Shown one piece after another: positions 1,558 to 58,845 of a DNA stretch of 64,000 nt. The DNA is from a virus (taxonomy: Duplodnaviria > Caudoviricetes), in the IMG/VR virus record IMGVR_UViG_3300028591_000071, one strand, 5' to 3'. The first letter of the stretch is position 1; the number at the start of each line of letters is the position of its first letter. The translations under genes were made by a program, and so were the position numbers. Below the pieces are notes generated by a model. That model ran no database searches and had not been told where the DNA came from. It was given only the letters and a program-made list of their open reading frames with translations.

Positions 1558-3087
1558 ATGAAGAAACTTATATTGAAAGAAGGGGCAAACCCAAACTACC
1601 TTGCAACAATTTGCAAGATTGGCGAAACTCAGCCGATTGAGGGCGCAGACCGCCTTGTAAAGACCGTTATCAACGGCTACGACATTGTTATTTCCAAGGA
1701 TATGAAGCCTGGGACTATCGTTGTGTATTTCCCTGTGGAGTGTGCGATTTCTCAGGAGTTCCTGTCTGCCAACAACCTGTTTGAGCGTGGCGAATTCTAT
1801 CGTAACGCAAATGCCGAAGAGGTCAAGGCCATGATTGAAAAGGTGGAAAAAATCGGCCTTAAACAGTCTTGGTCTTGGGACGAAGAGAAAGGTAGCGAAA
1901 ACCCATACCGTGAGTTAACCAAGGAAGAGGTTGAAGAGCGTGATAAGATTCTTGCCGAGATTAAGTCCATGTGTGGCTTCTTCGGGAAGAACGGGCGTGT
2001 CCGTATCCTCAAACTCCGTGGTCAATATTCTCAGGGATTCATCGCAGGCGTTGACGCTCTCGTGAACTTTGCACCTGAACTCGCTGATGCCGATTGGGAG
2101 TCCCTTGTCGGTACGCAGTTCAACTTCGTTGGCGAGAAAGAGATTTGCTGGAAGTATGTTCCTGCGACAAAAGAAGTTCGCAGTGGCGGCGGTTCCGAGC
2201 GTGAGTGGAAGAAGAGGATGAAGCACCTCAAGAAGTTTGACCGCCTTATTGACGGGCAGTTCGCCTTTCATTATGACACCAAAATGCTCGCTGAGCATAT
2301 CAGCGAGATTAGTCCAGACGACAATGTGTCTATTACCGTAAAGGTTCACGGAACTTCTGTCATCATTGCAAACATCCTTTGCAACCGAAAGTTGTCCGTT
2401 TGGGAGAAGGTTAAGAAGTTCTTCGGCTTCAAGGTGAAGGACAAGGAGTACAGCAACATCTATGCTTCCCGTTCCGTTATCAAGAACCGTTACATCAATC
2501 CCGACAAGCACGACTTCTATGGCGGCGACCCTTGGGGCTGCGTGGAGCGCGATTTCGGGCCGTATCTTGAGGAAGGAATGACCGTTTACGGAGAAATTGC
2601 AGGATATGTTGAGGGTTCTCAAAGCATGATTCAAGCAAAGCACGACTATGGCTGTAAGCCCGGCCAGTGGAAATTCATGCCTTACCGAATCACAATGACC
2701 GATGAACTCGGGAACAAGACCGAGTGGGATGTTGCACAGGTTGACAAGTGGACCCGCGACCTTGTTGTGGCACACCCTGAACTCGCCGAGAAGACGATGT
2801 TCCTCACCATCCTTTATCATGGCCGCTTCGGTGACCTCTATCCTGACCTCGACGAGAGTCAACATTGGCATGCTAATGTTCTCGCTCGCATGAAGACCGA
2901 CAGGACGAACTTCCTTATGGAAGAGGACGAGCCGCTTTGCAAGAACAAGGTTCCTCGTGAGGGTATTGTCATCCGCATTGACGGCGACAAGTTCGCTCGT
3001 GCATGGAAACTCAAGACTCTCCGCCATTACGGAAAGGAGGCCGAGCAGCACGACAAGGGTGAGGTTGACATGGAAGAGGATGCTTAA
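1558..3087 (+). CDS. RNA ligase, DRB0094/Rnl5-like, with N-terminal OB domain
   Basis: N-terminal PIEGADRL...LRGQYSQG; motif I KVHGT, III VYGE, IV REGIVI, V WKLK. Confidence 0.8.
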   Translation: MKKLILKEGANPNYLATICKIGETQPIEGADRLVKTVINGYDIVISKDMKPGTIVVYFPVECAISQEFLSANNLFERGEFYRNANAEEVKAMIEKVEKIGLKQSWSWDEEKGSENPYRELTKEEVEERDKILAEIKSMCGFFGKNGRVRILKLRGQYSQGFIAGVDALVNFAPELADADWESLVGTQFNFVGEKEICWKYVPATKEVRSGGGSEREWKKRMKHLKKFDRLIDGQFAFHYDTKMLAEHISEISPDDNVSITVKVHGTSVIIANILCNRKLSVWEKVKKFFGFKVKDKEYSNIYASRSVIKNRYINPDKHDFYGGDPWGCVERDFGPYLEEGMTVYGEIAGYVEGSQSMIQAKHDYGCKPGQWKFMPYRITMTDELGNKTEWDVAQVDKWTRDLVVAHPELAEKTMFLTILYHGRFGDLYPDLDESQHWHANVLARMKTDRTNFLMEEDEPLCKNKVPREGIVIRIDGDKFARAWKLKTLRHYGKEAEQHDKGEVDMEEDA

Positions 3088-3093
3088 ACGAAC

Positions 3094-3124
3094 AATCCCG
3101 GGCTTAACGCTCGGGATTTGTTTT
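3094..3124 (+). terminator. intrinsic terminator
   Basis: AATCCCGGGC..GCTCGGGATT hairpin followed by a T-rich tail. Confidence 0.6.
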
Positions 3125-3152
3125 ACTCCGCATTTTTTTGTATATTTGGAAC

Positions 3153-3866
3153 ATGAGTGTGAATTGTTATTTTTTAATTGAAGTAAAAGGTGCTGACGGA
3201 AAATGGCATCTCGTAAAATGGTATTCAAACGAACCCTTTGATGAGTTTGACAAGGATACCGCAATATATTCATTCGAAACCGAAGCAGAAATAAATGGAA
3301 AGAAGACCATTGAAAAACACGAAATTTGGACGGGCCTTCAGTGGCGCGACGAATTGTCTTGGAGCCGAAATTTTGATAGGGATATATCCACAGAGGGCCT
3401 TCCAAAAGATATCAGTGAAGAACTTGACGCACTTATAAAAAAAAGATGGGAAAAAGAAAAAGAACGCCGCGTTGAACTCTATGGGAGCTCAGAAAGTGAA
3501 TACGAATACAAAACAAGATTCTATTACACCTACCTGAATGAAATGTGGGGTGTTTGCGATGAAAGGATGAAACAATGGAAAGATTCATTGCTTAAATGCG
3601 TCCGCGACACCCAACTTGATGAGATAAATGACAAACTTGATGACCTTAAAAAACTCGTTCAAGGAAAGGAAGTGAAAGCCAAAAAGAAGAAGGATGATGA
3701 CGAAGAGTTCTATGAAGACACGCTTGAATATCATCTTGATGAACATCTTGAAGATGTCATCGCTCTTCGTAAGGAAACGAAAATGTTGTCCACTATAGCG
3801 GAGACATTTGTTGGCGACAGATGGCTTGACAGCGAGAGAGTTAGAGTATATTTTTATTTTTCATAA
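3153..3866 (+). CDS. hypothetical protein
   Basis: ORF after a TATATTTG -7 box; ATG at 3153. Confidence 0.65.
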   Translation: MSVNCYFLIEVKGADGKWHLVKWYSNEPFDEFDKDTAIYSFETEAEINGKKTIEKHEIWTGLQWRDELSWSRNFDRDISTEGLPKDISEELDALIKKRWEKEKERRVELYGSSESEYEYKTRFYYTYLNEMWGVCDERMKQWKDSLLKCVRDTQLDEINDKLDDLKKLVQGKEVKAKKKKDDDEEFYEDTLEYHLDEHLEDVIALRKETKMLSTIAETFVGDRWLDSERVRVYFYFS

Positions 3867-4552
3867 TGGAACCGATTAACACCAAATATCCAAGGACCTA
3901 CCACCTTCCGTGGTCTCCGGGAACGACATCCGATGACAGGAAGTTGTCGGGAGATTGGTTTTTATCGTATCATGGCAAAGAAATTGTAATTTCTGAAAAA
4001 TGCGACGGAGAAAATTTGGCAATTAACCACTACGATTGCTTTGCCCGTTCACACGGAGCACCAACTCGTTCTCCATGGTCAAGGAATATTTGGGATAAAG
4101 ATGGTTTACTTTGGCAATTAAAAGATAAAATCGGAGAAAACGAAACGATTTATGGAGAAAATTTATACGGAGAGCATTCAATCCATTACGATAAACTTAC
4201 CTCATATTGGCATATATTTGCTGTAACAAACGGAAATGTTTGGTATTCATGGGATGATGTTTGTACAATCGCCGAAATATTAAAACAACCAACAGTTCCC
4301 GTGCTTTGGAGGGGGATTGTCAACACCGAAGAAGAACTCAGGGCTCTTGTGGATAGATTCGTTTCGGAGCCGTCAGTTTATGGCCCTACGCGGGAAGGAG
4401 TTGTTATAAGGGTATCTAACGAGTTCCCAATTGACGAGTTCAATACACATGTTTGTAAATGGGTTCGCCCAAACCATATTCAAACCGATGAACACTGGAC
4501 AAAGAATTGGAAAAGGGCAAAATTAATGTGGGAAAATGAAACACTACGATAG
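3866..4552 (+). CDS. RNA ligase family protein
   Basis: KYPRTYHLPWSPG N-terminus; EKCDGEN, YGEN, REGVVIR, CKWVR motifs. Confidence 0.85.
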   Translation: MEPINTKYPRTYHLPWSPGTTSDDRKLSGDWFLSYHGKEIVISEKCDGENLAINHYDCFARSHGAPTRSPWSRNIWDKDGLLWQLKDKIGENETIYGENLYGEHSIHYDKLTSYWHIFAVTNGNVWYSWDDVCTIAEILKQPTVPVLWRGIVNTEEELRALVDRFVSEPSVYGPTREGVVIRVSNEFPIDEFNTHVCKWVRPNHIQTDEHWTKNWKRAKLMWENETLR

Positions 4553-5213
4553 CATACCAAGAATACAAGATGATGGAACACTGAAAGGAGAGACCGTATG
4601 GGGGTTTAACAAACTCGACGGCCAAAACTTCTGTGTCACTTACAATTGTAGGAAAAAGACTTGGGGGCCTTATGGTTCAAGGACGGTCAGCGTTGATGAG
4701 AACAGCGAACAATTCGGCCCTGTTGTAAAGTGGTTCAACGCATCTCCGTATCGTGAAATTCTTTCAGGCATAATGAAAGAAAACAGCGGAAAGAAAGGTA
4801 TATTCAATGGCGTGGAGGAAGTGACATTTTTCTTTGAATGGTACGGAGAGAATTCGTTTGCGGGAAAGCATCAGGAGGGCGATGAAATGCATCTCGCCCT
4901 TATTGATGTATTCCTTAAGAAGCGCGGGTATATGGAGCCAGGTGACTACTATAACCTGTTTAACAACAGCGGAATCGAGATGCCCGAATTGATATACAAA
5001 GGCCCGCTCAATGAGGAAATAATCAGATGTGTTCAAGAATGTGATTGGACCAAGTCAAATGATGTGCTCGGTACAATTAAGGAGGGTGTGGTTTTCAAGC
5101 GTAGCACCCTGATGAAGGGGCAGAGAAGGCCAAGCGTAAAAGTAAAAACAAAGTGGTGGCTCAATAAACTCCATTCAATGTATAGTGAAGAAGAATGTAA
5201 GAAACTTGAATAG
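4536..5213 (+). CDS. RNA ligase-like nucleotidyltransferase
   Basis: NKLDGQN, FFEW, KEGVVFK and KVKT ligase motifs. Confidence 0.7.
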   Translation: MKHYDSIPRIQDDGTLKGETVWGFNKLDGQNFCVTYNCRKKTWGPYGSRTVSVDENSEQFGPVVKWFNASPYREILSGIMKENSGKKGIFNGVEEVTFFFEWYGENSFAGKHQEGDEMHLALIDVFLKKRGYMEPGDYYNLFNNSGIEMPELIYKGPLNEEIIRCVQECDWTKSNDVLGTIKEGVVFKRSTLMKGQRRPSVKVKTKWWLNKLHSMYSEEECKKLE

Positions 5214-12725: not shown

Positions 12726-12951
12726 GTTTGACTACATTCGCAAATGGGTTGAAAAATGGAATCCAGATATTCCAAGAACTGTAGAGCGAATAGAAATGAC
12801 TCCGTGGGATATTTTTATATGGAGTTGGCCCCAAATAGACCATTATGGGGAAATAATTGAGGATTTTGAGGAGTGGTATAAGCAGCGGCACGATTTTTGC
12901 ATTAAATTAGCAGAAGAATATGAAAGCAGAAACATTTCAGAAAATAACTGA
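12709..12951 (+). CDS. hypothetical protein
   Basis: operon ORF. Confidence 0.5.
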   Translation: MTKTYRFDYIRKWVEKWNPDIPRTVERIEMTPWDIFIWSWPQIDHYGEIIEDFEEWYKQRHDFCIKLAEEYESRNISENN

Positions 12952-14239
12952 TTACCTCAGGGAGATAACCAAGGGCACGAAGTACGACAAGCATGTGTAC
13001 GCCGTTGGCGGGTGCTGCCGTGATTACCGTGTAGGAAGGGAGATTAAGGACATTGACCTTGTAATCGACCTTCCTGATGGTGGTATTAAGTTCGCAAAGT
13101 ACCTTGAAAGAAAAGGCATTACAACGGGAACCGTCGTTACTTACGAGCATTTCGGCACGGCGATGTTCCACCTGAAGGAATTTCCCGAATACGAACTTGA
13201 AGCGGTGCAAACGAGGAAGGAGGCGTACAGGGACATGGAATCAAGGAATCCTGAAACTGCGTATGGAAGCCTCTCGGACGACTGTATGAGGAGGGATTTT
13301 ACCTACAACGCAATCTATTTCCGAATTTCCGATAGAGTGTTCATGGATTTCAATGGGCATTCATACGAAGACCTTAAGAACAATGTGCTTCGCACCTGCG
13401 GAAACCCTGATGTAATCTTTACCGAAGATTCGCTCAGGATTCTTCGTGCCGTTAGGTTTTCTTCCCGTTTCGGTTCAACCATCGAGGAAAAGACATATAA
13501 TGGGATGGTGAAGTTCGTTGACCGACTCAGCATTATCAGCCGCGAGCGCATCTATGATGAGTTCAAAAAGATGATATCAACGGGTGATTATTATAAGACG
13601 CAATACGCAATCTGCACCCTTTGGGATATTGGGGCATTCAAGTATATTCTTCCTCACCTTCATACGATGAAAATGCTTGACAGAATGTACCTTCTCAATA
13701 GGATTGGAAGAACATGCCAACACTACCCTCCTAAGTTCGAAGAAGTCATGGCTGCTATTATGTGTGGCTATGATGATGCTGAGACAGAATTGCGGGACCT
13801 TAAGTTATCGAATGATGAGGTTAAGGAAATTCTTTTCTACATCAACGAGAACAAGACCCTACAGGCAATCATAGGAAACGAAGACATTGAAATGTACCTG
13901 TCAAGAAAGGTGATGAACGATTGTGGGGACGAAAGGCGTTTTCTTACAACAACAATTATTGGCAGTGCTGAACTTTACCATGAGTTTCATACGGTCTGTG
14001 AAGATGGCTTTGATGGATATAATTCTTTGTATGATAGTATCATTGAGCATGAGAAAGAGTATTTCACATATGAACTTCCACTTACGGGAGAAGATGTGAT
14101 GGCCGAATTGGGAATCGGGCCATGTGAAAAGGTTGGCAAAGCACTTGACAGGCTTAAGAAGTTTGCGTTCATCAACAAAGACCATAAGAGCAGGGAAGAC
14201 TTGCTTGATTACCTTAAATATCTTAAGACAGAATTATGA
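12920..14239 (+). CDS. cca: class II CCA-adding tRNA nucleotidyltransferase
   Basis: VGGCCRD, DIDL, RRDFTYNA, EDSLRILRAVRF, SRERI motifs; most tRNA genes here lack encoded CCA. Confidence 0.88.
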   Translation: MKAETFQKITDYLREITKGTKYDKHVYAVGGCCRDYRVGREIKDIDLVIDLPDGGIKFAKYLERKGITTGTVVTYEHFGTAMFHLKEFPEYELEAVQTRKEAYRDMESRNPETAYGSLSDDCMRRDFTYNAIYFRISDRVFMDFNGHSYEDLKNNVLRTCGNPDVIFTEDSLRILRAVRFSSRFGSTIEEKTYNGMVKFVDRLSIISRERIYDEFKKMISTGDYYKTQYAICTLWDIGAFKYILPHLHTMKMLDRMYLLNRIGRTCQHYPPKFEEVMAAIMCGYDDAETELRDLKLSNDEVKEILFYINENKTLQAIIGNEDIEMYLSRKVMNDCGDERRFLTTTIIGSAELYHEFHTVCEDGFDGYNSLYDSIIEHEKEYFTYELPLTGEDVMAELGIGPCEKVGKALDRLKKFAFINKDHKSREDLLDYLKYLKTEL

Positions 14240-42076: not shown

Positions 42077-42193
42077 TCGGAACAAAAGGAATCGAACCTC
42101 TTCTAGCGGCTCCCATAGCAAAAACGAAAATTGCTGTAGATAACCTTGCCAGATTACACGATAAACGCTGTGCTACCATTACACTATATTCCG
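42077..42193 (-). ncRNA. Pro-like tRNA scaffold carrying an ACAGCAA module in the anticodon arm
   Basis: C1-G72/A73, D and T arms intact; insert ...GGTTATCTACAGCAATTT. Confidence 0.6.
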
Positions 42194-46751: not shown

Positions 46752-46913
46752 TGGGCGATAATGGAGTCGAACCATTGACCCCCTGCTTGTGTTGGTAGAT
46801 TACGCTTCGAACGTAAACAACATAAGCGCGTTTTCTCCCGTTCTACCAAAAACCCGTCACAGTGGGTTAATCTGTAGAAGGCAGGTGCTCTGAACCAACT
46901 GAGCTAATCGCCC
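46752..46913 (-). tRNA. tRNA-Val(TAC) with 87-nt intron (46791-46877)
   Basis: removing the insert restores CCTGC CT TAC AA GCAGG. Confidence 0.85.
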
Positions 46914-47090
46914 TAATTCCCGCGTTTGTTGGCCGCGGGAGGCCTCGATAGACGCTTTGCGCGATGGCCCCGTTCATCCCATCATTTATATCGGGGTTTA
47001 GTGTTAACGCAATGCGCTCTTTTAAGTCCCGAAGGACTACCGCATTTACGGTAATGCGGTCAACCAATTAACCACTCTTCGAGTGATATG

Positions 47091-47267
47091 CGGGCACAGT
47101 AGGACTCGAACCTACAACCTACGGATTAGGCATACTATTCAGAATCGAACTGAAATCACTACTGCCACGGCTTCGGGTCCTCGCCATTAGACGATAGTAT
47201 GCTTAAGTTCATTTTCGGCGAACTATTCCTTATACAGTCCGTTGCTCTACCATTGAGCTATGTGCCC
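47091..47267 (-). tRNA. tRNA-Asn(GTT) with 105-nt intron (47129-47233)
   Basis: removing the insert restores ACGGA CT GTT AA TCCGT; G73. Confidence 0.85.
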
Positions 47268-47418
47268 TTGTTAATAAAAAGCCATTTAATCGCCTGTTGG
47301 ATTCAATACTCGGCGGAGCTAACAATACTTTAAGTCACCATAATGAGTTACCTACCAACTTACTCCCGGTAAAATCCGGGGCTTCATTCCTAAAAGCCTA
47401 GACGATTGTGGCTTATTG

Positions 47419-47499
47419 TGGGCTCGGTGGGACTCGAACCCACACCCCCGAAGGGACCAGCTCCTAAGGCTGGCGTGTCTACCATTCCACCACGAGCCC
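47419..47499 (-). tRNA. tRNA-Leu(TAG)
   Basis: cloverleaf, variable arm. Confidence 0.92.
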
Positions 47500-47614
47500 A
47501 TTTTGGCCACGGGGACTTATGACCACGGTCAATTAACCCATCAACTATTGACCTTTCCTACTCATGGGCTGTTGGGCGTCTCCACTTTCGGCGTTTTCTC
47601 TGCGTTCCCCTTTG

Positions 47615-47687
47615 TACTCCTATCGGGAGTCGAACCCGAATCCCCGGACTGAGAATCCGGTCGCCTAAACCATTAGCAGATAGGAGC
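47615..47687 (-). tRNA. tRNA-Glu(CTC)
   Basis: cloverleaf. Confidence 0.88.
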
Positions 47688-47690
47688 ATA

Positions 47691-47959
47691 AATTGCAGAA
47701 ACCCGTAAACTGCCGTATCATTTACCAGTACGAAACCTATTCTGCCATAGGCGATACTTTTATCCGAATCTGTGCAGACCATTGATTCGGAAGGGTCGTT
47801 TTTATAGTTCGTTTACAGGAGTCGAACCTGCACCTCCCGCCTTCGGGCATGCTTCCGCTACACCAAACCGATTTTACGAAGTATCGTCCCTTGATTAACC
47901 CTGCACGGTTATTCTCGGTATTGTCCAACGCCAATTACTCGCATTGTGCAGATGCTTTC
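47691..47959 (-). ncRNA. unknown ~270-nt ncRNA, copy B, with an embedded tRNA mimic
   Basis: shares blocks with copy A; tRNA-like module at about 47806-47871. Confidence 0.5.
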
Positions 47960-47960
47960 G

Positions 47961-48035
47961 TGGAGCGGGTAATCAGAATCGAACTGACATCCCAGGCTTG
48001 GAGGGCCTATGCACTAACCGTTGTGCTATACCCGC
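47961..48035 (-). tRNA. tRNA-Gly(TCC)
   Basis: cloverleaf, CCA encoded. Confidence 0.9.
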
Positions 48036-48176
48036 TTATAAACACATACCCTCAAGGGTTTTGAAATTTAAACTATGTACCCACATCGGGCCCACCTCCG
48101 ATTCTCACGGCGAACTTTTGAGGTTAAGTCACGGGAAGTTATTCCCACCGACATATATGTGTATCTTTTCTTTATG

Positions 48177-48248
48177 AGCCTCTTGACAGAATCGAACTGT
48201 CATCTAGGCGTTACGAATGCCTTATAATAACCGTTATACTAAAGAGGC
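48177..48248 (-). tRNA. tRNA-Thr(CGT)
   Basis: cloverleaf. Confidence 0.87.
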
Positions 48249-48258
48249 GATTCTTTTG

Positions 48259-48331
48259 AGCCGGAGACAGGAGTCGAACCTGCAACCCCCTGATTACAAG
48301 TCAGGTGCTCTACCATTAAAGCTACTCCGGC
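48259..48331 (-). tRNA. tRNA-Thr(TGT)
   Basis: cloverleaf. Confidence 0.92.
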
Positions 48332-48339
48332 AAAATCCC

Positions 48340-48990
48340 ACATATTCTCCGCCCGTGGGGAGGCTCCTTGCACCCCTATTTATTAGTCGCCCGCCATAAT
48401 TGCGACACCATACAGTACTGTTGATAGGTAAAAGTCTGTGGTTCAGTGCCCTTATTACCGCCTTACCCCCTGAATGATTGGAACATTTCTGTCGTGCTGC
48501 CTATACGGGGCTTACGCCCACCTGGGGTACATCATCGAAACGAAATCTTGCGCAAGTTACCATCTAGCGGAAGATGCGGAATATCAGCCCGCCCCAACTA
48601 ATTGGTAATTTCATCTCGTGAACGAACCGGGGAGGATAACTTTCATTTGCAACCCGGCTCTTAGCCCGCCAATCTTTTTACCACAGTAAGAAAAGTGCCA
48701 TACTACATCGCTGCGACTGAGGAACCTCGGCTTCACGAGGATTGCATGACCATTGGGATTTCTCCTTTACATGGTTTTACCACTCTGTTGGCAGGGCGCT
48801 TCAATTGTGGTTTATGAATTATATCCACAATCTCAAGGTTCATGAGCAGCCTGACATTAATTATTCGCGCGGTCAGTTTCATATCTTGGCAGACTTGCGA
48901 TTAAGCAACATTTAAGTATCTCTCCTCGGTCAACCACCAAGTTTCCTCATTACTACTTGGCAAGGTCCTACCCTAAAATAGGACGCGGCA
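48340..48990 (-). ncRNA. candidate ~650-nt large ncRNA
   Basis: no ORF of 60 aa or more starts in the block; GC-richer; embedded in the tRNA operon. Confidence 0.4.
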
Positions 48991-49005
48991 CTTTATAAAT
49001 TTAAC

Positions 49006-49060
49006 AGGAAACGGTTTTCAGAATATTAAAAGTCCTTGAAAAAATTGCTGTCTGTTTCCT
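49006..49060 (-). ncRNA. minimal ACAGCAA RNA with Lys-like loop
   Basis: AGGAAAC/GTTTCCT stem, GACTTTTAAT. Confidence 0.55.
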
Positions 49061-49081
49061 TAATTGTAACTCAATTTCGTG

Positions 49082-49792
49082 TGGCCCAGGCGGGACTCGA
49101 ACCCGCACGGCCCTTTCGGGCCAAGGGATTTTCGTACCACTATAGCTTTCGCTACCAATTAGTCTGTAGTGCTCGCAGTGCGGCAACCTCAGGATTTACA
49201 ATCACAATTCCCGGTGGGAAGATACACCTTCTTATACTAATTGTTTGTGGTCTGGACTGTATCTTAACCATATTGAAATCTTGCAAGATATCTATTGCGG
49301 AAGTTACGGATTCGAACCGCCTATAAGCCATTTCTCCGGTTTCACCAGTGCATACAATACAATAGATAATTTCAACTTAGGTTCCTCCTGTATCTCGTCT
49401 CTACACACTGTCTAAAAATTGCTGCGTTCATTTCCTTAAATTTAACAGCACCCACTCACGGGCTTAAGGCTGCAATTTTATAACATTGGCTCGGTATTGG
49501 CTTGACTCATTAGGCAAGCAACTTTAATGACGTACTCTGCTCTATTTCATCAGAGATATTCAACCTAATAAATTTTAGCTTTCACCGAATTAGGGAGGTT
49601 CTGCATCCAAGGTTTCCCTTGGTGCACTCAAATTTTACTTAATAAGTGAGAAATATCACAGGTTGCGTACCTTATTACGTTGGACTTTCACCAACCTCCT
49701 GCCTAGCTCAACATCCCGTCGAATGCGTATCGCAATATTTCCCTTTAAGTAACGTTAAAGTCCCTTGCGTCTACCAATTCCGCCACTGGGCC
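49082..49792 (-). tRNA. tRNA-Leu(TAA) split by a group I intron
   Basis: exons 49758-49792 and 49082-49132 join as AGGGA CT T^AA AA TCCCT. Confidence 0.9.
49133..49757 (-). mobile_element. group I intron, 625 nt, no convincing ORF
   Basis: 5' exon ends in U, intron ends in G; P AATTCGGTGAAA, Q AATACCGAGC, R GTAGAGAC, S AAGATACAGTCC. Confidence 0.88.
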
Positions 49793-49800
49793 ATTATTTG

Positions 49801-49918
49801 CAACCATGACAGGACTCGAACCTGCGACACGCGGATTATCAGTCAATAAACATTGCTGTAAATTTCCATAACCTGTAAACATAAAAGTACGCCGCTCTAC
49901 CCTCTGAGCTACATGGTC
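49801..49918 (-). ncRNA. tRNA scaffold with ACAGCAA insertion (Lys-like and Ile-like loop remnants)
   Basis: GACCATG/CATGGTT acceptor; insert GGAAATTTACAGCAATG. Confidence 0.6.
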
Positions 49919-49953
49919 ACCGTTAACTTAAAACATAATCCTTCGATTATTTG

Positions 49954-50041
49954 CGGAGAAGGCCGGATTCGAACCGACGGGGCGCTCATCACGCCCGCAT
50001 GTTTTCAAGACATGTGCAATAAACCACTCTGCCACTTCTCC
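49954..50041 (-). tRNA. tRNA-Ser(TGA)
   Basis: cloverleaf, variable arm, G73. Confidence 0.92.
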
Positions 50042-50820
50042 TTATTCATTTTGCGCCCTTTTGACCATCCTTTGTTGAGAAAAATATTGATGTCTTCTTT
50101 TTTGATTTTCTTGTTTTCAACTCCATTGGTTATCCAACAAGTTCCAAATTGGCTATTCTTTTCTCCTGATTGGTCATTATTAGCTTTATGTGTTTTTGAC
50201 ATTTTATCTTTTGTCTCTTGAGTGTGCTTCCTACCCCTCCAAAAAGGAATTAAATCACCATTAATGTATCGTTCATCATCAAAAGAAACTCTAGTGGCCA
50301 TCCCGTTTTTATCCTTAACAATGATGGTCCCATTACACACATGTATGTATTTATCATTATTGGACGAATAATCTTCTTTTTCAACCAATTTAAAAGAACA
50401 TGATTGTTTATCATAAACAGGAACCATTCCTTTTGAAACTGGTATTAGTTCTCCGCTTTCTAATCTCTTGTCATTCGGCAAAACTCTCAAGAATTTTGAA
50501 CTATAATCCTTAACTAAAATTGTTCCAACTGTTGTTCCAAAATCTCCGCCAATCTTCATATTATAACAATTTTCATCAAGAACACAAGATTCTGTAACCA
50601 TTTCGGATTCATATTCTGACGCAAGTTCTCGGCTTTTAAAATATTTTATGATTGTTTTTACGAAATTTTCTTTTCCGTAAATTTTATAATCACGATTCAA
50701 ATTCTTTCCAGAACCCATATACCCATCGTCAAGATTATTGGTAGAATGAATGCCGTAATAATATTTTCCGTTAATGATGTTTTCTATTCTATAGAAATAA
50801 TGATACTTATACTTTCCCAT
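50005..50820 (-). CDS. GIY-YIG (Seg-like) homing endonuclease with NUMOD3
   Basis: YFYRI.N.INGKYYYGIH...YMGSG; GRKHTQETK; its 3' end runs into tRNA-Ser. Confidence 0.85.
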   Translation of the reverse strand: MGKYKYHYFYRIENIINGKYYYGIHSTNNLDDGYMGSGKNLNRDYKIYGKENFVKTIIKYFKSRELASEYESEMVTESCVLDENCYNMKIGGDFGTTVGTILVKDYSSKFLRVLPNDKRLESGELIPVSKGMVPVYDKQSCSFKLVEKEDYSSNNDKYIHVCNGTIIVKDKNGMATRVSFDDERYINGDLIPFWRGRKHTQETKDKMSKTHKANNDQSGEKNSQFGTCWITNGVENKKIKKEDINIFLNKGWSKGRKMNKEKWQSGLLHMS

Positions 50821-50879
50821 ATGTTCGAATTACTATATATAAATAGTATCGAACAGGTGAAAAGTCAAATATTTTTTTG

Positions 50880-50963
50880 CGGAAGCCTGAGGTGTCGAGC
50901 CCCATGCCATGTGGCACGCATCGCTTTCGAGGCGAGCCAAGAAGCCGTTCTTGTTAGACTTCC
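50880..50963 (-). tRNA. tRNA-Ser(CGA) with a tRNA-Sec-like 8/5 body
   Basis: 8-bp acceptor, 6-bp D stem with 4-nt loop, variable arm, G73. Confidence 0.7.
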
Positions 50964-51209
50964 GTTTTATCCGCATTCCATATCACATTTCGTGCAGATT
51001 ATAATAGTTTCACAATATGTCAAAGACCTTCAAGTGTTTATGCAAATATACATAGTTTGTTTTGCAAAAACAAATGTTTTTAATCACTTTTTGTCTATTT
51101 ATCTTAAGTAGACATATCTCGGGGTCGGGATTAAACAAGGAATTTCGCTACCTTATTAACGGACCGTGAGTAGAGGGATGGGAGTGATGAACCTGTCCCT
51201 CGTTTTTTG

Positions 51210-51284
51210 TTGCGTAGGTGAGATTTGAACTCACGACCCCGAGGATATGAATCTCGTGCTCTACAACCACTGAGCTACTACGCA
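51210..51284 (-). tRNA. tRNA-Met/Ile2(CAT)
   Basis: cloverleaf. Confidence 0.85.
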
Positions 51285-51300
51285 ATATTCAAAGAACTTT

Positions 51301-51380
51301 TGGCATATAGACAGGACTCGAACCTGCGTGGGCTGTTCCTACCCGAACCCGACATATGTGTGCACTTACATCCTATATGC
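51301..51380 (-). ncRNA. tRNA-like RNA with aberrant D and anticodon arms
   Basis: GCATATAG/CTATATGC stem, then CA, T-arm present. Confidence 0.45.
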
Positions 51381-51384
51381 TTTG

Positions 51385-51460
51385 TGGTCTGCCTGAGACT
51401 CGAACTCAGAACCTCCTGTGTATCAGACAGGTGCTCTCAAACCAATTGAGCTAACAGACC
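51385..51460 (-). tRNA. tRNA-Ile(GAT)
   Basis: cloverleaf. Confidence 0.9.
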
Positions 51461-51465
51461 ATATT

Positions 51466-51540
51466 TGGAGCGGGTAAGCAGAATCGAACTGCCATCCCCA
51501 GCATGGCAAGCTGGTGCACTAACCGTTGTGCTATACCCGC
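51466..51540 (-). tRNA. tRNA-Gly(GCC)
   Basis: cloverleaf, CCA encoded. Confidence 0.92.
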
Positions 51541-51545
51541 ATATT

Positions 51546-51845
51546 TCAATAGACATCCGTCTCAATCACAAACCTCTTCTCCCTCTTTCCTCTGAACGGG
51601 CCGTCTTTGGTGTGTACCGTTTCAATTCCATAGAGAATGCTTCCCTTGAAAATCCACCCGTACTCATACATTTCGCCCGTTATATCAACGGAGTGAAAAG
51701 AATCTTCGCCTTCAAGACGCTTTTGTCCTTCAATGCAATCGTCAATGAACTTCTTTGCCTTATCAAGGCTGTCAAATGTCTCAATGCCGTTCTGATGGTG
51801 GCCATCCCCATCAAGGCTTTGAATGATAACTGTGTAAATTTTCAT
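51546..51845 (-). CDS. hypothetical protein
   Basis: ORF on the array strand. Confidence 0.55.
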   Translation of the reverse strand: MKIYTVIIQSLDGDGHHQNGIETFDSLDKAKKFIDDCIEGQKRLEGEDSFHSVDITGEMYEYGWIFKGSILYGIETVHTKDGPFRGKREKRFVIETDVY

Positions 51846-51857
51846 ATCTTCAAAATT

Positions 51858-52145
51858 TTAACGGCTCATTCTCTTTTCCTGCCATTCCAAGAACTCGGAG
51901 AATAAAACTATTTTCCTTACAACGTCCCCGACGCTTCTCAGAATAAACAATTCGATGAAGTCTTCGTCAAACTCGTCGTACTGCGGCTCCCACTCAGCAT
52001 CACGAAAATGCAGTTTCGCACCAACTAACTCGTCCCATAATGATTCCCACTGTTTTGTTCTCTTCAAATACAATTCGAACATTACATAAAGAAAGTGTGC
52101 GTCCTCCATCCTTTCGGACCATTTTTCTTTTTCAGTCTTTTCCAT
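51858..52145 (-). CDS. hypothetical protein
   Basis: follows the sigma54-like motif near 52178. Confidence 0.55.
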   Translation of the reverse strand: MEKTEKEKWSERMEDAHFLYVMFELYLKRTKQWESLWDELVGAKLHFRDAEWEPQYDEFDEDFIELFILRSVGDVVRKIVLFSEFLEWQEKRMSR

Positions 52146-52199
52146 TTCCAAAATTTTCAAATTCCGATATATTATCTACAAATATCGTACCAAACTTTG

Positions 52200-52358
52200 T
52201 GGGAGCGGGAGGACTCGAACCTCCGAAGGCCGAAGCCGAGGGATTGTGGGTATAGGAATGTACGATACTCCGAAACTTCCTTTATTTATACCCAATCAAT
52301 TTGTACAGTTTTATTCTGTTATTACAGTCCCTTGCAATTGCCACTATGCGACGCTCCC
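52200..52358 (-). tRNA. tRNA-Tyr(GTA) with 77-nt intron (52246-52322)
   Basis: removing the insert restores AGGGA CT GTA AA TCCCT; Tyr variable arm. Confidence 0.85.
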
Positions 52359-52375
52359 ATATATTATTCTATTTT

Positions 52376-52693
52376 TTACCCTTCATTAACTCTCTTAATC
52401 TTCTTCTTCAATTCTTCAATATCCTTCTTAATCTCGTCAATAAGGTCTTCGTCAGCACCTTCTTCGTGAAGCATGCTAAGTACCTTGCTGAGACCGAGAA
52501 ATTCACCCTTCAATATCTCCTCAACCTCCCCGTCGGAAGATACCATCTCGTTATTCATCAGTCGCTCGATATCGCGTTTCTTATCCTCGAACGCCGCCCT
52601 CATCTTATGAAGTTCATGTATCTTCGCCTCCTTGTAGGCAGCATAACACCCTGCCACCATGCAAATCAAAAATCCTATCAATATCCAAATCAT
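52376..52693 (-). CDS. membrane-anchored coiled-coil protein
   Basis: N-terminal TM. Confidence 0.6.
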   Translation of the reverse strand: MIWILIGFLICMVAGCYAAYKEAKIHELHKMRAAFEDKKRDIERLMNNEMVSSDGEVEEILKGEFLGLSKVLSMLHEEGADEDLIDEIKKDIEELKKKIKRVNEG

Positions 52694-52696
52694 AAT

Positions 52697-53488
52697 TTAA
52701 TAATTCAATTTTATTCTTTCAAGTTCACTGTCGTCCATCACCCTTATCGCCGAACTTGGTATCGGTTCAAACGTAAAGATAGAATTTTTCCATCTTGCAT
52801 CAAAGAAGAACGACTGCTTCTTGTTTAACTTATTTAAATCAACTTCCACCACAACCGGCGGAGCGTTATCACCTTTCATTAAGTTCAGGTCATATGCTTG
52901 TTCCTTGGACGGGATATCTGCCCTGAAATAAATCCTCGGCTCATTATCAAACCCGGGTGTCTTTGATTTCTTCGGCACTAACCCCTGACCCAATATTTTT
53001 TTCTTCAGTCTTGACGATGTTACGTGATAAATCTTATCTGTCATATTGAGAAGTTGCCCAACAGTAAACCTGTCACCAAACTTCTTTTCAAACATATATT
53101 CAATATTATCGCCATTGCCATCTGTTCTGTAATTAAACCAACCATATTTCAGCATATGTGCGTTTATCTTGTCAAACAACTCGCTTCCCCTTGGTAATGT
53201 AACCACTATAATTTCGCCAGTCCCGTTTGGCTTTGATATCCTTATATTGCCGTTCGGTTCATTTTCCTTTCCTCGCATAGAATCAATCGTATCCTTCCAT
53301 TTCCCGTTTATCGAAAGCCCGTTATGCTCTGCTATGGAATCTATAACCGATTCTGTCGGGTAGGTAGTTATTAACCCTTCTTTTATCAGCAATGGCCTTT
53401 TTTCAACCATCACATCGAAAAGAGTGTGGGATGTTACATTCTCCCCTATTCTCTCCATAAGGGAAAGTATTTTGTATAACTCATCCAT
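52697..53488 (-). CDS. ADP-ribosyltransferase/Tpt1-fold protein
   Basis: IYHVTS..IL.QGL.P..RIYF..VEVD..FTFEPIP..AI. Confidence 0.55.
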   Translation of the reverse strand: MDELYKILSLMERIGENVTSHTLFDVMVEKRPLLIKEGLITTYPTESVIDSIAEHNGLSINGKWKDTIDSMRGKENEPNGNIRISKPNGTGEIIVVTLPRGSELFDKINAHMLKYGWFNYRTDGNGDNIEYMFEKKFGDRFTVGQLLNMTDKIYHVTSSRLKKKILGQGLVPKKSKTPGFDNEPRIYFRADIPSKEQAYDLNLMKGDNAPPVVVEVDLNKLNKKQSFFFDARWKNSIFTFEPIPSSAIRVMDDSELERIKLNY

Positions 53489-53501
53489 TTCCTATAATTT
53501 G

Positions 53502-53573
53502 TAGCCCCAATGCGACTCGAACGCATATTGTAGGTTTAGGAAACCTAAGTTCTATCCCTTGAACTATGGGACC
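53502..53573 (-). tRNA. tRNA-Arg(CCT)
   Basis: cloverleaf, A20. Confidence 0.88.
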
Positions 53574-53676
53574 ATATCATTCAGCAACAGTTTACACTTA
53601 GCTTATCGGCAACGCCCTTCTCCTGTCCGGGACTTACTCGCCTTGCGTGTCGTTAATACGCATATCGCTGAATTTG

Positions 53677-53751
53677 AGCCCTCGGTCGGATTCGAACCAA
53701 CACCTCTGCCATACCACAGCAGCGTACTCAGCCATTAAATACTACGAGGGC
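53677..53751 (-). tRNA. tRNA-Thr(GGT)
   Basis: cloverleaf. Confidence 0.82.
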
Positions 53752-53757
53752 TTCTCG

Positions 53758-53828
53758 TTGAAGGCAGAGGAATCGAACCTCTATTCTGGGAACCAAAATC
53801 CCATGTCTTACCTTTAGACGAGCCTTCA
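53758..53828 (-). tRNA. tRNA-Gln(TTG)
   Basis: cloverleaf. Confidence 0.9.
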
Positions 53829-53837
53829 ATACCTTGC

Positions 53838-53957
53838 AGGAATAGCGGGATTCGAGCCCGCGAGTGGTGATTAACTCCACATCCTTCCGTCAGCATGACA
53901 TCTGAGCCTTTATGCGCAATATTATGCTCAGCCGCTATTATATCTATCCCTTATTCC
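53838..53957 (-). ncRNA. degenerate tRNA-like RNA
   Basis: GGAATA/TATTCC stem, T-arm and variable hairpin; 5' half aberrant. Confidence 0.35.
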
Positions 53958-54001
53958 AACGGATTCCAACCGTATATCGGTAATCACTTCCGATATTAGC
54001 G

Positions 54002-54075
54002 TACCTCGGATGCGATTCGAACGCATGACCTACAGATTAGAAGTCTGTTGCACTATCCAGCTGCGCTACCGAGGC
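54002..54075 (-). tRNA. tRNA-Arg(TCT)
   Basis: cloverleaf. Confidence 0.92.
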
Positions 54076-54080
54076 ATAAA

Positions 54081-54510
54081 TAACCTATTATGTGCTTTTA
54101 CGCTTAATGCTCCAACGGCGGTTTCACAGACATTCCAGTGAATCAATTAACCTAGCGTTGATTCCGCGCCCATCATCCTCATGAATGGTACGCCATGGCT
54201 ATCGAGTAGCCACTTAAGGTTAAGTGCTCGTTCCTCCCGTACTGGGGCACCTTATCTGTCTTACCTGTCTCCGACTCCCATAATATCCTTCACGAAACCG
54301 AGGAACGGCGGGCATTTCAGCCCGTCCTTTAAAACGGCCCATCCGGTATTGGTGCTTATGACTCCGTGCGGCGTCGCATGGCGTGTAGGTTCACTACCAT
54401 ACTGTGTTCTTGAGACCACCACTATTCGCCGCGTGTACCTGTCGGCATAGTCTCTTCCGCTCGCAACTCCTTAGCTGATGGCTGCTTCCAAGCCTACAGT
54501 TAATAGGTTA
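54081..54510 (-). ncRNA. 430-nt RNA mimicking 23S rRNA H43/H44 (L11-binding GTPase centre)
   Basis: 10-bp closing stem; GTAGGCTTGGAAGCAGCCATCAGCTAAGGAGT ... AAGCGTAAAAGCACAT. Confidence 0.7.
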
Positions 54511-54572
54511 TAAAATATTTCAATGAACTTCTTTTTATACTTCAAATATCGTGCCAACACACACAAATTTTG

Positions 54573-54647
54573 TGGCCCCGACGGGACTCGAACCCGTAAC
54601 CCACTGTTTAAGAGACAGTTGCGCTCAACCAATTGCGCCACAAGGCC
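54573..54647 (-). tRNA. tRNA-Lys(CTT)
   Basis: cloverleaf. Confidence 0.9.
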
Positions 54648-54654
54648 ATATTTG

Positions 54655-54775
54655 TTGATGGCTACGGATTCGAACCGCCCCCCGTTCTCCATAAGAAATA
54701 GCGAATAAATTGCTGTCTGTTTCCATGTCTGTAAACGGTTTTTGCATTCGTGTGCTACCACTACACTAACCATCA
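54655..54775 (-). ncRNA. tRNA scaffold with ACAGCAA insertion
   Basis: TGATGGT/GCCATCA acceptor; insert GGAAACAGACAGCAATTT. Confidence 0.6.
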
Positions 54776-54787
54776 AATTTCAAGTCG

Positions 54788-54916
54788 TTGCGAGTGAAAG
54801 AGTCGAACTTCCCCTAGTCCCTTATGATGGAGTTTTTGCTTGTAAAATTTGCTGTATAATCTCCTACTCGGAAATCGGATGCATTTTTTACCGTGCTACC
54901 GCTACACTAACTCGCA
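54788..54916 (-). ncRNA. tRNA scaffold with ACAGCAA insertion
   Basis: TGCGAGT/ACTCGCA acceptor; GATTTCC..GGAGATT then ATACAGCAAATTT. Confidence 0.6.
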
Positions 54917-54926
54917 ATATTTTTTG

Positions 54927-55000
54927 TACCCTCGAAGGGACTCGAACCCCCAACCTCTTGGTTCGTAGCCAAGTGCTCTAATCCATTGAGCTACGAGAGC
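54927..55000 (-). tRNA. tRNA-Arg(ACG)
   Basis: cloverleaf. Confidence 0.92.
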
Positions 55001-55096
55001 ATTTTGACAGGCGAAGCTAACCTGTCCACGGATTCCCTACAGGCGCCCGGGTTCCGCAATGGAGATGTTCACGCCCCTTCATCATCCAATTAAAGC

Positions 55097-55420
55097 TTAC
55101 TTTTTCATTTTCCTATAATATTCATCGTCAATCCTTTCGATATAATCCAACGGTGATTCCCCTTCCTTGAGGGTGTGAATCTTGTCAAATCCCGCATCTT
55201 CTGTTATCATCGACTCTTCAGGTCTGATGCTTCCCTTGTACTTCCCGTAGTTGGATGTCTCAAATGACTTTGTCGCAGGATTGTAATCTCCCCAACTTGT
55301 CTTTTCCTTTCCATCTATGGGTTCAACAAAATAAGTCTTTCCCGTTTTCGACGACTTGACGATGAATCTTCCTGTATCATCTCGGTTCATTAAGAACCGC
55401 TTTGTAAAATCTTTATCCAT
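55097..55420 (-). CDS. conserved hypothetical protein
   Basis: TGRF.V.S.KTGK.YFVEPI, WGD.NPAT motifs. Confidence 0.65.
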   Translation of the reverse strand: MDKDFTKRFLMNRDDTGRFIVKSSKTGKTYFVEPIDGKEKTSWGDYNPATKSFETSNYGKYKGSIRPEESMITEDAGFDKIHTLKEGESPLDYIERIDDEYYRKMKK

Positions 55421-55422
55421 AG

Positions 55423-55597
55423 TGACCCCTGCGGGGCTCGAACCCGCGACCCCGACATTAGAACCGTTAACGGGACTTGCACCCGTGCCTCACCTGTTTC
55501 CCAAGTGTTTCCCACTGCTCGAATTCTAACGGTTTGGTTCGTTACGGTGAACCACTCCTTATAAAGTGTCGTGCTCTACCAACTGAGCTAAGAGGTC
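55423..55597 (-). tRNA. tRNA-Lys(TTT) with 102-nt intron (55461-55562)
   Basis: removing the insert restores CGACA CT TTT AA TGTCG. Confidence 0.85.
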
Positions 55598-56298: not shown

Positions 56299-56373
56299 AA
56301 CTACATATATTTTATATATAAATAGTTGTTTTAAACCAAAAAGTAAACATTTTTATTTCAAAGAACTATTTTG

Positions 56374-56445
56374 TGCTCCCATCCAGACTCGAACTGGAAC
56401 CCCTGGATTAAAAGTCCAGTTGACTAACCTTTATCCTATGAGAGC
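56374..56445 (-). tRNA. tRNA-Lys(TTT), intronless
   Basis: cloverleaf. Confidence 0.8.
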
Positions 56446-58753: not shown

Positions 58754-58772
58754 AATATATTCTAAAAATTTG

Positions 58773-58845
58773 TGGTACATACAGGACTTGAACCCGTGCT
58801 TATCGGTTTTAGAGACCGTCGTGCAAACCGCTACACCAATGTACC
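58773..58845 (-). tRNA. amber suppressor tRNA (CTA)
   Basis: GGTACAT/ATGTACC acceptor, CGGT CT CTA AA ACCG, T-arm. Confidence 0.85.

Follow-up and report, generated by a model that had tools for sequence, protein, structure and literature searches.

The 64,000-nt stretch of IMG/VR virus record IMGVR_UViG_3300028591_000071 analyzed here (the window) is a portion of a large sheep-rumen phage, with 42% GC and apparently using genetic code 11; its sequence is present in gut sequencing runs from sheep, goat and cattle. The window carries around 40 tRNA genes and a tmRNA, together with three RNA ligases, HD-Pnk, a CCA-type nucleotidyltransferase and RlaP. Four of the tRNA genes, all on the minus strand, are interrupted within the anticodon loop by inserts of 87, 105, 77 and 102 nt (Val, Asn, Tyr and Lys, respectively), with the coordinates and insertion sites (Val 34/35, Asn 35/36, Tyr 36/37, Lys 35/36) that an earlier note on this DNA had given. 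The genes and the parts of their introns are as follows, "Lak-type" referring to the tRNA introns of Lak megaphages.

46752-46913, minus strand: tRNA-Val(UAC), split at 34/35 (5' exon 46913-46878, 3' exon 46790-46752); its isotype is that of the nearest intact tRNAs
46791-46877, minus strand: Val intron, 87 nt; leader (pseudoknot) 46877-46850, acceptor strands 46849-46842 and 46799-46792, T arm 46816-46800, C74 at 46791
47091-47267, minus strand: tRNA-Asn(GUU), split at 35/36
47129-47233, minus strand: Asn intron, 105 nt; leader 47233-47203, acceptor strands 47202-47195 and 47137-47130, D-arm-like start, T arm 47154-47138, C74 at 47129
52199-52358, minus strand: tRNA-Tyr(GUA), split at 36/37
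52246-52322, minus strand: Tyr intron, 77 nt; Lak-type leader 52322-52295 (4-bp P1, A-rich loop and tail), acceptor strands 52294-52287 and 52254-52247, T arm 52271-52255, C74 at 52246
55423-55597, minus strand: tRNA-Lys(UUU), split at 35/36
55461-55562, minus strand: Lys intron, 102 nt; leader (pseudoknot) 55562-55535, acceptor strands 55534-55527 and 55469-55462, T arm 55486-55470, C74 at 55461

Removal of the insert leaves in every case a 5-bp anticodon stem and a 7-nt loop with the anticodon UAC (Val), GUU (Asn), GUA (Tyr) or UUU (Lys) in a canonical cloverleaf. As had been remarked, the window lacks uninterrupted genes for Val, Asn and Tyr; for Lys UUU it has one (56373-56445). The Val intron is 75% identical to the tRNA-Thr intron of related locus L123, likewise located at 34/35, a similarity implying that introns have moved from one isotype to another; that of Lys is 93-98% identical in loci L119, L122, L125 and L137, the adjacent gene there being 72-75% identical; and the leader of the Tyr intron is a close match to the Lak tRNA-Phe intron.

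A 107-aa open reading frame (ORF) of no known family (55097-55420, minus strand) begins 2 nt past tRNA-Lys and, in L122, L127 and L137, is linked to the Lys gene that carries the intron.

Shared anatomy and distribution of the inserts

The inserts share one order of elements. The splice site is followed by N-U-A and an H-type pseudoknot; then comes the pre-tRNA mimic, with its T arm, D-loop GG and 7-bp acceptor extended by a -1:73 pair, and C74 closes the insert. The 8-bp acceptor-like stem, 5-bp/7-nt T arm and single end C described in the earlier note are present in all four inserts; nevertheless, what had been read as an 8-bp stem is a normal 7-bp acceptor with one additional pair. Wherever a D arm remains, the 8-nt strand is followed by U8, which makes the additional pair -1:73 and places the terminal base at tRNA position 74. 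The small hairpin of the leader is also shared, although in Val, Asn and Lys it is really stem P2 of the pseudoknot, the loop pairing with leader positions 4-6.

The search for relatives in phage metagenomes suggested earlier yielded 50 distinct introns (less than 85% identical to each other), of 65-167 nt, in tRNAs for 11 amino acids and at sites from 33/34 to 36/37, the relatives coming from gut and rumen phages. IMG/VR was searched with a 3'-junction pattern, which gave at least 115 matches, and none in 100 shuffles. An insert-agnostic scan of those loci recovered extra members missed by the pattern, each of them having the helix and the final C as well, while leader-only searches, in which the 3' end was not used, led to tRNA anticodon loops and then to the mimic plus C, with scattered chance matches outside tRNA genes. 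Counts given below rest on differing intron sets: 34 unfiltered introns, the 50 less than 85% identical, and 45 or 26 for some features.

The intron 5' end is (A/U/C)-U-A and never G, with U at +2 in 46/50; the terminal C and the A at +3 are found in 50/50, both being a selection filter of this set, and in 34/34 each of the unfiltered set. Stem P1 begins at +4 in nearly all introns. In the mimic, T-loop C56 is invariant (34/34), the D-loop GG is present in 47/50 (null 28.6, maximum 39), and all eight acceptor pairs are Watson-Crick in 28/34 introns, compared to 5 of 6800 shuffled bodies, each of the eight positions showing several Watson-Crick pair types. The -1:73 pair is Watson-Crick in 47/50 introns whereas ordinary tRNA genes are at chance (0.53 observed, 0.55 expected), thus it was rejected as a general signature of the phage's tRNA genes. 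The intron ends 13 nt plus C past the T loop in 48/50; the idea of the 13-bp acceptor and T helix as a ruler therefore holds for the 3' junction but fails for the 5' junction, since leader length varies from 24 to 33 nt across the class and P1 lies at +4. Features of an RNase Z substrate are present: a 12-bp acceptor/T helix, C56, D-loop GG and a lineage-typical 3' end.

An H-type pseudoknot leader was recognized in 26 introns, those of Val, Asn and Lys among them. At pair 5:17, 16 of these have G-C and 10 have A-U, with no mismatches, and four P2 pairs covary; the pseudoknot covariation score was 0.615 against 0.222 in shuffled sequences (reached in 0/500 shuffles), in counts that ignore kinship. 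Covariation among homologues, whose absence, along with that of spliced junction reads, the earlier note would have held against its proposal, is seen in the knot as well as in the several pair types of each acceptor position. Single-sequence folding z-scores were weak (-0.7 to -2.0), so that support for the structure comes from covariation; in MAFFT alignments the variable middle of the introns is misplaced. In the other introns, including Tyr and those of Lak, P1 is longer, the tail is A-rich and P2 is short (2-3 bp) or doubtful.

The class was not found in 401 Bacteroidota genomes, and its carriers are phage or phage-like contigs only; single matches in GTDB and in the 401 genomes were judged to be chance and not host-chromosome members. 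Searches of cultured phages with the window's Lys gene or with two genes of the leaderless sister class described below gave no match. Two over-specific patterns gave no matches either. Many pattern matches consisted of an intact tRNA and an orphan T arm lacking a 5' exon, and were excluded from the class.

This last arrangement, an intact tRNA gene followed by an orphan T-arm fragment with no matching 5' half, was seen in L004, L007, L009, L010 and about 60 other IMG/VR loci and is probably the product of array decay. In the window, a free-standing tRNA-like RNA just downstream of tRNA-Ile (51302-51380, minus strand) has the 8+5 bp helix and C of the introns' 3' module, with neither leader nor host exons.

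Relation to known introns and tRNA-like signals

The inserts had been proposed as a candidate new class of tRNA introns, with Lak megaphages named as a point to check; the class had in fact been reported before. Lak megaphages carry "enigmatic" tRNA introns, anticodon-loop inserts of 79-141 nt without an Rfam family (Devoto et al. 2019, PMC6784885), and these share the anatomy described above (Table S6 and Fig. 4 of that paper): all four published types, compared by eye from Table S6, have N-U-A, P1 with an A-rich tail, the 8+5 bp helix and the terminal C. The Gly intron of Lak A2/C1, absent from Lak A1, is 99.4% identical to the recovered intron L077, and introns identical or near-identical to Lak ones (L002, L048, L077) parse together with the four of the window. 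The inserts therefore belong to the Lak type, which was reported but whose fold was never defined, and represent here a fuller pseudoknot variant; three of the four window introns differ from the Lak ones in having a fuller, 5-bp P2. The Lak paper remarked on a tRNA shape only in the case of the Thr intron, where it also noted an offset of 1 nt; it described no shared fold or mechanism, and it rests on presence and absence at the DNA level (PMC6784885). Its tRNAscan boundaries are 1-2 nt off, and its "Tyr GTA" genes are Asn GUU at the structural register. Our literature search yielded neither a definition of the fold or mechanism nor any follow-up on the Lak introns, which have been unexplained since 2019. 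Annotation is corrected as well, because interrupted genes have been overlooked or assigned to the wrong amino acid; in the window, ARAGORN miscalls the Asn intron and its 3' exon as tRNA-Ser CGA (47090-47180).

In agreement with the earlier note, the inserts are neither group I nor group II introns, being too short, ending in C, starting with N-U-A and having no Rfam intron match. Group I introns occupy the same anticodon-loop site in bacterial and phage tRNAs and are also mobile and patchy; however, they measure about 200 nt or more as compared to 65-167 nt, end in omega-G instead of C, and possess a P3-P7 core which the inserts lack. The U preceding the 5' site, a group I hallmark, is found in only 29/45 inserts, where any base may precede. 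The group II hallmarks of a GUGYG start, domain V and a bulged branch A are absent, and no Rfam group II match was obtained. Regarding archaeal and eukaryotic introns (EndA/TSEN plus RtcB or Trl1/Tpt1), these are also short, located in the anticodon loop and removed by cutting and ligation, TSEN measuring from the tRNA body. Nevertheless, the inserts lie at 33/34-36/37 and not at 37/38, their carriers lack EndA and RtcB, the tRNA shape comes from the intron itself, and the bulge-helix-bulge (BHB) motif is missing (0/45), as had been noticed. No Rfam match to known small self-cleaving ribozymes was found at E up to 1.

The closest parallels in function are tRNA-shaped elements directing RNase P and RNase Z cuts, such as mascRNA/menRNA and mitochondrial tRNA punctuation, and the Pnk/Rnl1 tRNA repair of T4, in which phage ligase seals anticodon-loop breaks. 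These systems release or mend RNA ends; we know of none that unites both into excision and exon ligation.

The window does contain a group I-like intron of 625 nt (49133-49757, with U before the site and a terminal G), which splits tRNA-Leu(UAA) (49081-49791, minus strand) at 34/35. Neither ARAGORN nor Rfam detected it. Its RNA contig depth far exceeds that of any other part of the stretch, and it appears to hold a tRNA-like T arm plus an ACAGCAA unit.

Evidence for removal of the inserts

The inserts are real, structured and under selection, and they are very probably spliced. When exons are joined at the register defined by the structure, the anticodon isotype equals that of the top intact neighbour in 31/34 genes, versus 4/34 by majority vote one base upstream. 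The bases of the split anticodon are retained on both sides at four different sites, and the exon stems show compensatory changes across the intron. Among six near-complete genomes the split gene was the sole copy of its anticodon in 13/14 cases. Moreover, exact intron-less alleles exist of the window's Lys gene (L126, 93% identical including the flank), of its Tyr gene (L104, 92% identical) and of the Lak Gly gene.

An improbable alternative is that the inserts stay unspliced, the products being non-decoding decoy RNAs, tRNA halves or tolerated dead genes. Phage tRNAs are dispensable, and the window has tRNA-shaped RNAs with non-excisable anticodon-arm modules (42077-42193, 49801-49918). In the sheep-rumen RNA contigs (runs X2, X21 and X18, with thin coverage) none of the joints listed matches the four introns, as would be expected under this alternative, although these contigs, in which the group I intron predominates, say little about splicing. 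Run X18 has a Lys junction without the intron, which was rejected because it has a mismatch and likely comes from another organism. Unspliced inserts are, however, difficult to reconcile with a structural register that restores both the 7-nt loop and the right anticodon, with anticodon bases kept on both sides, with covarying exon stems, and with the intron-less alleles.

As to function, the hiding of anticodons or timing of tRNA supply suggested in the earlier note fit the presence/absence alleles no better than does a mobile, tolerated element.

The 3' end of the introns and a leaderless sister class

Ordinary tRNA genes in the class loci encode C74 in 99% of cases and CCA in 5% (n = 223), and on one Bacteroidota chromosome the figures are 33/33 and 3/33. 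The presence in the window of a nucleotidyltransferase of the CCA-adding family fits tRNA genes that encode C74 only. In addition, we found a leaderless sister class, about 14 distinct inserts at 34/35-36/37 (L001, L103, L268, L270, L272, L275, L277, L282, L283, L286, L296), which comprise a tRNA body from +1 to CCA exactly and include a canonical tRNA-Phe inside tRNA-Arg (L283); in these loci ordinary tRNA genes encode CCA in 46/46 cases. The leaderless insert of L015 ends at C74 and looks intermediate between the classes.

The intron 3' end thus tracks the pre-tRNA end encoded by the lineage, which indicates that the 3' splice site is a normal pre-tRNA 3' end, as expected if a host 3' processing nuclease makes the 3' cut. 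The tRNase Z of spinach chloroplasts is documented to cleave after C74 and that of T. maritima after CCA (PMC3161902). The 5' junction of the sister class is the RNase P site, whereas that of the pseudoknot class lies 24-33 nt upstream, set by the pseudoknot.

Proposed route of excision

The genes of the window considered in relation to exon joining and end processing are the following.

1558-5213, plus strand: three ATP-dependent RNA ligase genes (1558-3087, 3866-4552, 4536-5213), Pfam PF09414
8010-9167, plus strand: HD-Pnk end-healing enzyme, Pfam HD and AAA_33
12920-14239, plus strand: nucleotidyltransferase of the CCA-adding/poly(A) polymerase family, Pfam PF01743
52697-53488, minus strand: 263-aa protein with a KptA/Tpt1-like C-terminal lobe (Foldseek E 5.5e-6), inside the tRNA cluster

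In our best model, to which we give an even chance of being right, the inserts would be mobile introns removed by way of tRNA end-processing, each of them a pre-tRNA mimic placed inside the anticodon loop and having a separate signal for each splice site. At the 3' site, the elbow and acceptor/T helix of the mimic would recruit a host RNase Z-type endonuclease, predicted to cut after C74, as at the C74-only tRNA genes of the lineage, leaving a 5'-phosphate on the 3' exon. At the 5' site, the step of which we are least sure, the pseudoknot would leave N-U-A unpaired so that an endonuclease may cut just 5' of it, 3 nt ahead of P1; host RNase E/G, with its consensus U at +2 and 3'-OH product, would be the best candidate, some phage protein being the alternative. 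The selected -1:73 pair would disfavor RNase P cleavage at +1 of the mimic. Meanwhile, the host anticodon stem would keep the exons together for a phage ATP-dependent RNA ligase to join the 3'-OH to the 5'-phosphate. Anatomy, covariation, register, distribution and selection on the exons are observed; the cleavage and ligation steps are predicted. Such a ligase is present in 6/6 near-complete class members compared and in 5/5 near-complete sister-class records, and the three of the window are candidate exon-joining enzymes; HD-Pnk would be required only where a cut gives a cyclic phosphate or 5'-OH. A Bacteroidota genome encodes RNase Z and RNase E/G, and four complete phage genomes encode neither. 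The RNase E rule of a U at +2 is documented (PMC5222698).

Several points weigh against this model. The ligase and Pnk kit is also found in an intron-less relative (G032), thus its co-occurrence has no discriminating power; the upstream purine of the RNase E consensus occurs in only 26/45 introns; several unpaired pseudoknot bases are invariant, beyond the needs of a generic RNase E site; and the covariation counts were taken without regard to phylogeny. Moreover, B. subtilis RNase Z is inhibited by C74.

The earlier note had named a tRNA-processing nuclease or a ribozyme as the cutting agent, together with a phage ligase; the nuclease is part of our best model, and the ribozyme is kept as a possible but unlikely rival. 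The pseudoknot, alone or docked on the mimic, would here be a small ribozyme cutting the 5' site, with phage Pnk and ligase finishing the reaction, or else, once the 3' site is cut, the terminal C would attack the 5' site through its 3'-OH and the intron circularize, in the manner of group I omega-G. The invariant unpaired leader bases, the constant 3-nt spacing before P1 and the lack of an intron-specific protein among the six genomes compared would suit RNA-catalyzed or RNA-assisted excision, and a self-contained element would account for the spread over 11 isotypes and sites 33/34 to 36/37. On the other hand, the conserved core is only about 27 nt, Lak-type leaders cut P2 to 2-3 bp, Rfam gave no ribozyme match (E up to 1), the sister class does without any knot, and C74 is already accounted for by the ends of the lineage's tRNA genes.

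Also unlikely, in our opinion, is a dedicated, unrecognized phage endonuclease that would recognize the pseudoknot as well as the tRNA elbow and cleave at the two splice sites, with Pnk and phosphoesterases healing the ends, ligase sealing them, and possibly a KptA/Tpt1-like protein removing a 2'-phosphate. It would explain the restriction of the class to phage or phage-like contigs; Pnk, phosphoesterases and ligase are present in all carriers, and the KptA/Tpt1-fold gene of the window lies 340 nt upstream of tRNA-Tyr. Nevertheless, no EndA, RtcB or RNase Z-fold genes were found in 20 phage records (EndA controls were positive), and BLAST clustering of six carriers against one non-carrier (G032), which would miss a fast-evolving nuclease, revealed no intron-specific protein: the families in all six carriers but not in G032 are dUTPase-like, IMPDH/GMP reductase and helicase-like, the first and last named by eye. 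A shared protein of about 205 aa was discarded because it is AEP-like and also present in the non-carrier. The KptA-like family was rejected as an obligatory partner, having homologues in only 3/6 carriers and lacking the N-lobe catalytic motif; a related-locus search with the 263-aa protein gave no match.

Taking both classes into account, there is probably a further tRNA splicing route apart from group I, group II and EndA/TSEN, in which mobile introns disguised as pre-tRNAs would be excised by host maturation nucleases and the exons joined by phage RNA-repair ligases. It would exist in two lineage-adapted forms, a +1-to-CCA form via RNase P and a pseudoknot-led C74 form in Bacteroidota phages, the knot being either a new processing signal or a minimal ribozyme. 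To our knowledge no protein-dependent tRNA splicing is known in bacteria, and a route via host tRNA-end nucleases and a phage ligase would be new for tRNA splicing. If true, besides adding a tRNA splicing route, it would give the phage Pnk/Rnl kits a housekeeping role in addition to anti-defence repair, and would show a way for a mobile intron to arise from a tRNA that had been joined by ligation into a broken anticodon loop.

Other RNAs of the window and recoding in two other phages

A family of ACAGCAA hairpins, with about 12 copies between 42077 and 54916 (minus strand), occurs free-standing or grafted into the anticodon arm of tRNA-shaped RNAs; the tRNA-shaped RNAs bearing it (42077-42193, 49801-49918 and 54787-54917) do not look excisable. 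Region 48404-49070 is a non-coding RNA region with contig depth 100-660 and no Rfam match. An abundant RNA at 54080-54511 (minus strand, contig depth about 200) matches Bacteroidota 23S rRNA (BLAST E 3e-5) in what by eye is the L11-binding GTPase centre, and has a sarcin-ricin-loop-like motif, seen by eye only; it is possible that this RNA acts as a decoy of the ribosome factor site.

The window also encodes an amber suppressor-type tRNA (CUA) at 58772-58845 (minus strand); 14 of its 53 long ORFs end in TAG, with no sign of code 15. In two other phages (G014 and G015, loci L153-L171), complete at 168-177 kb, TGA is read as sense and a tRNA with anticodon UCA is present, coding cover increasing from 0.31-0.37 to 0.70-0.73 under code 4.

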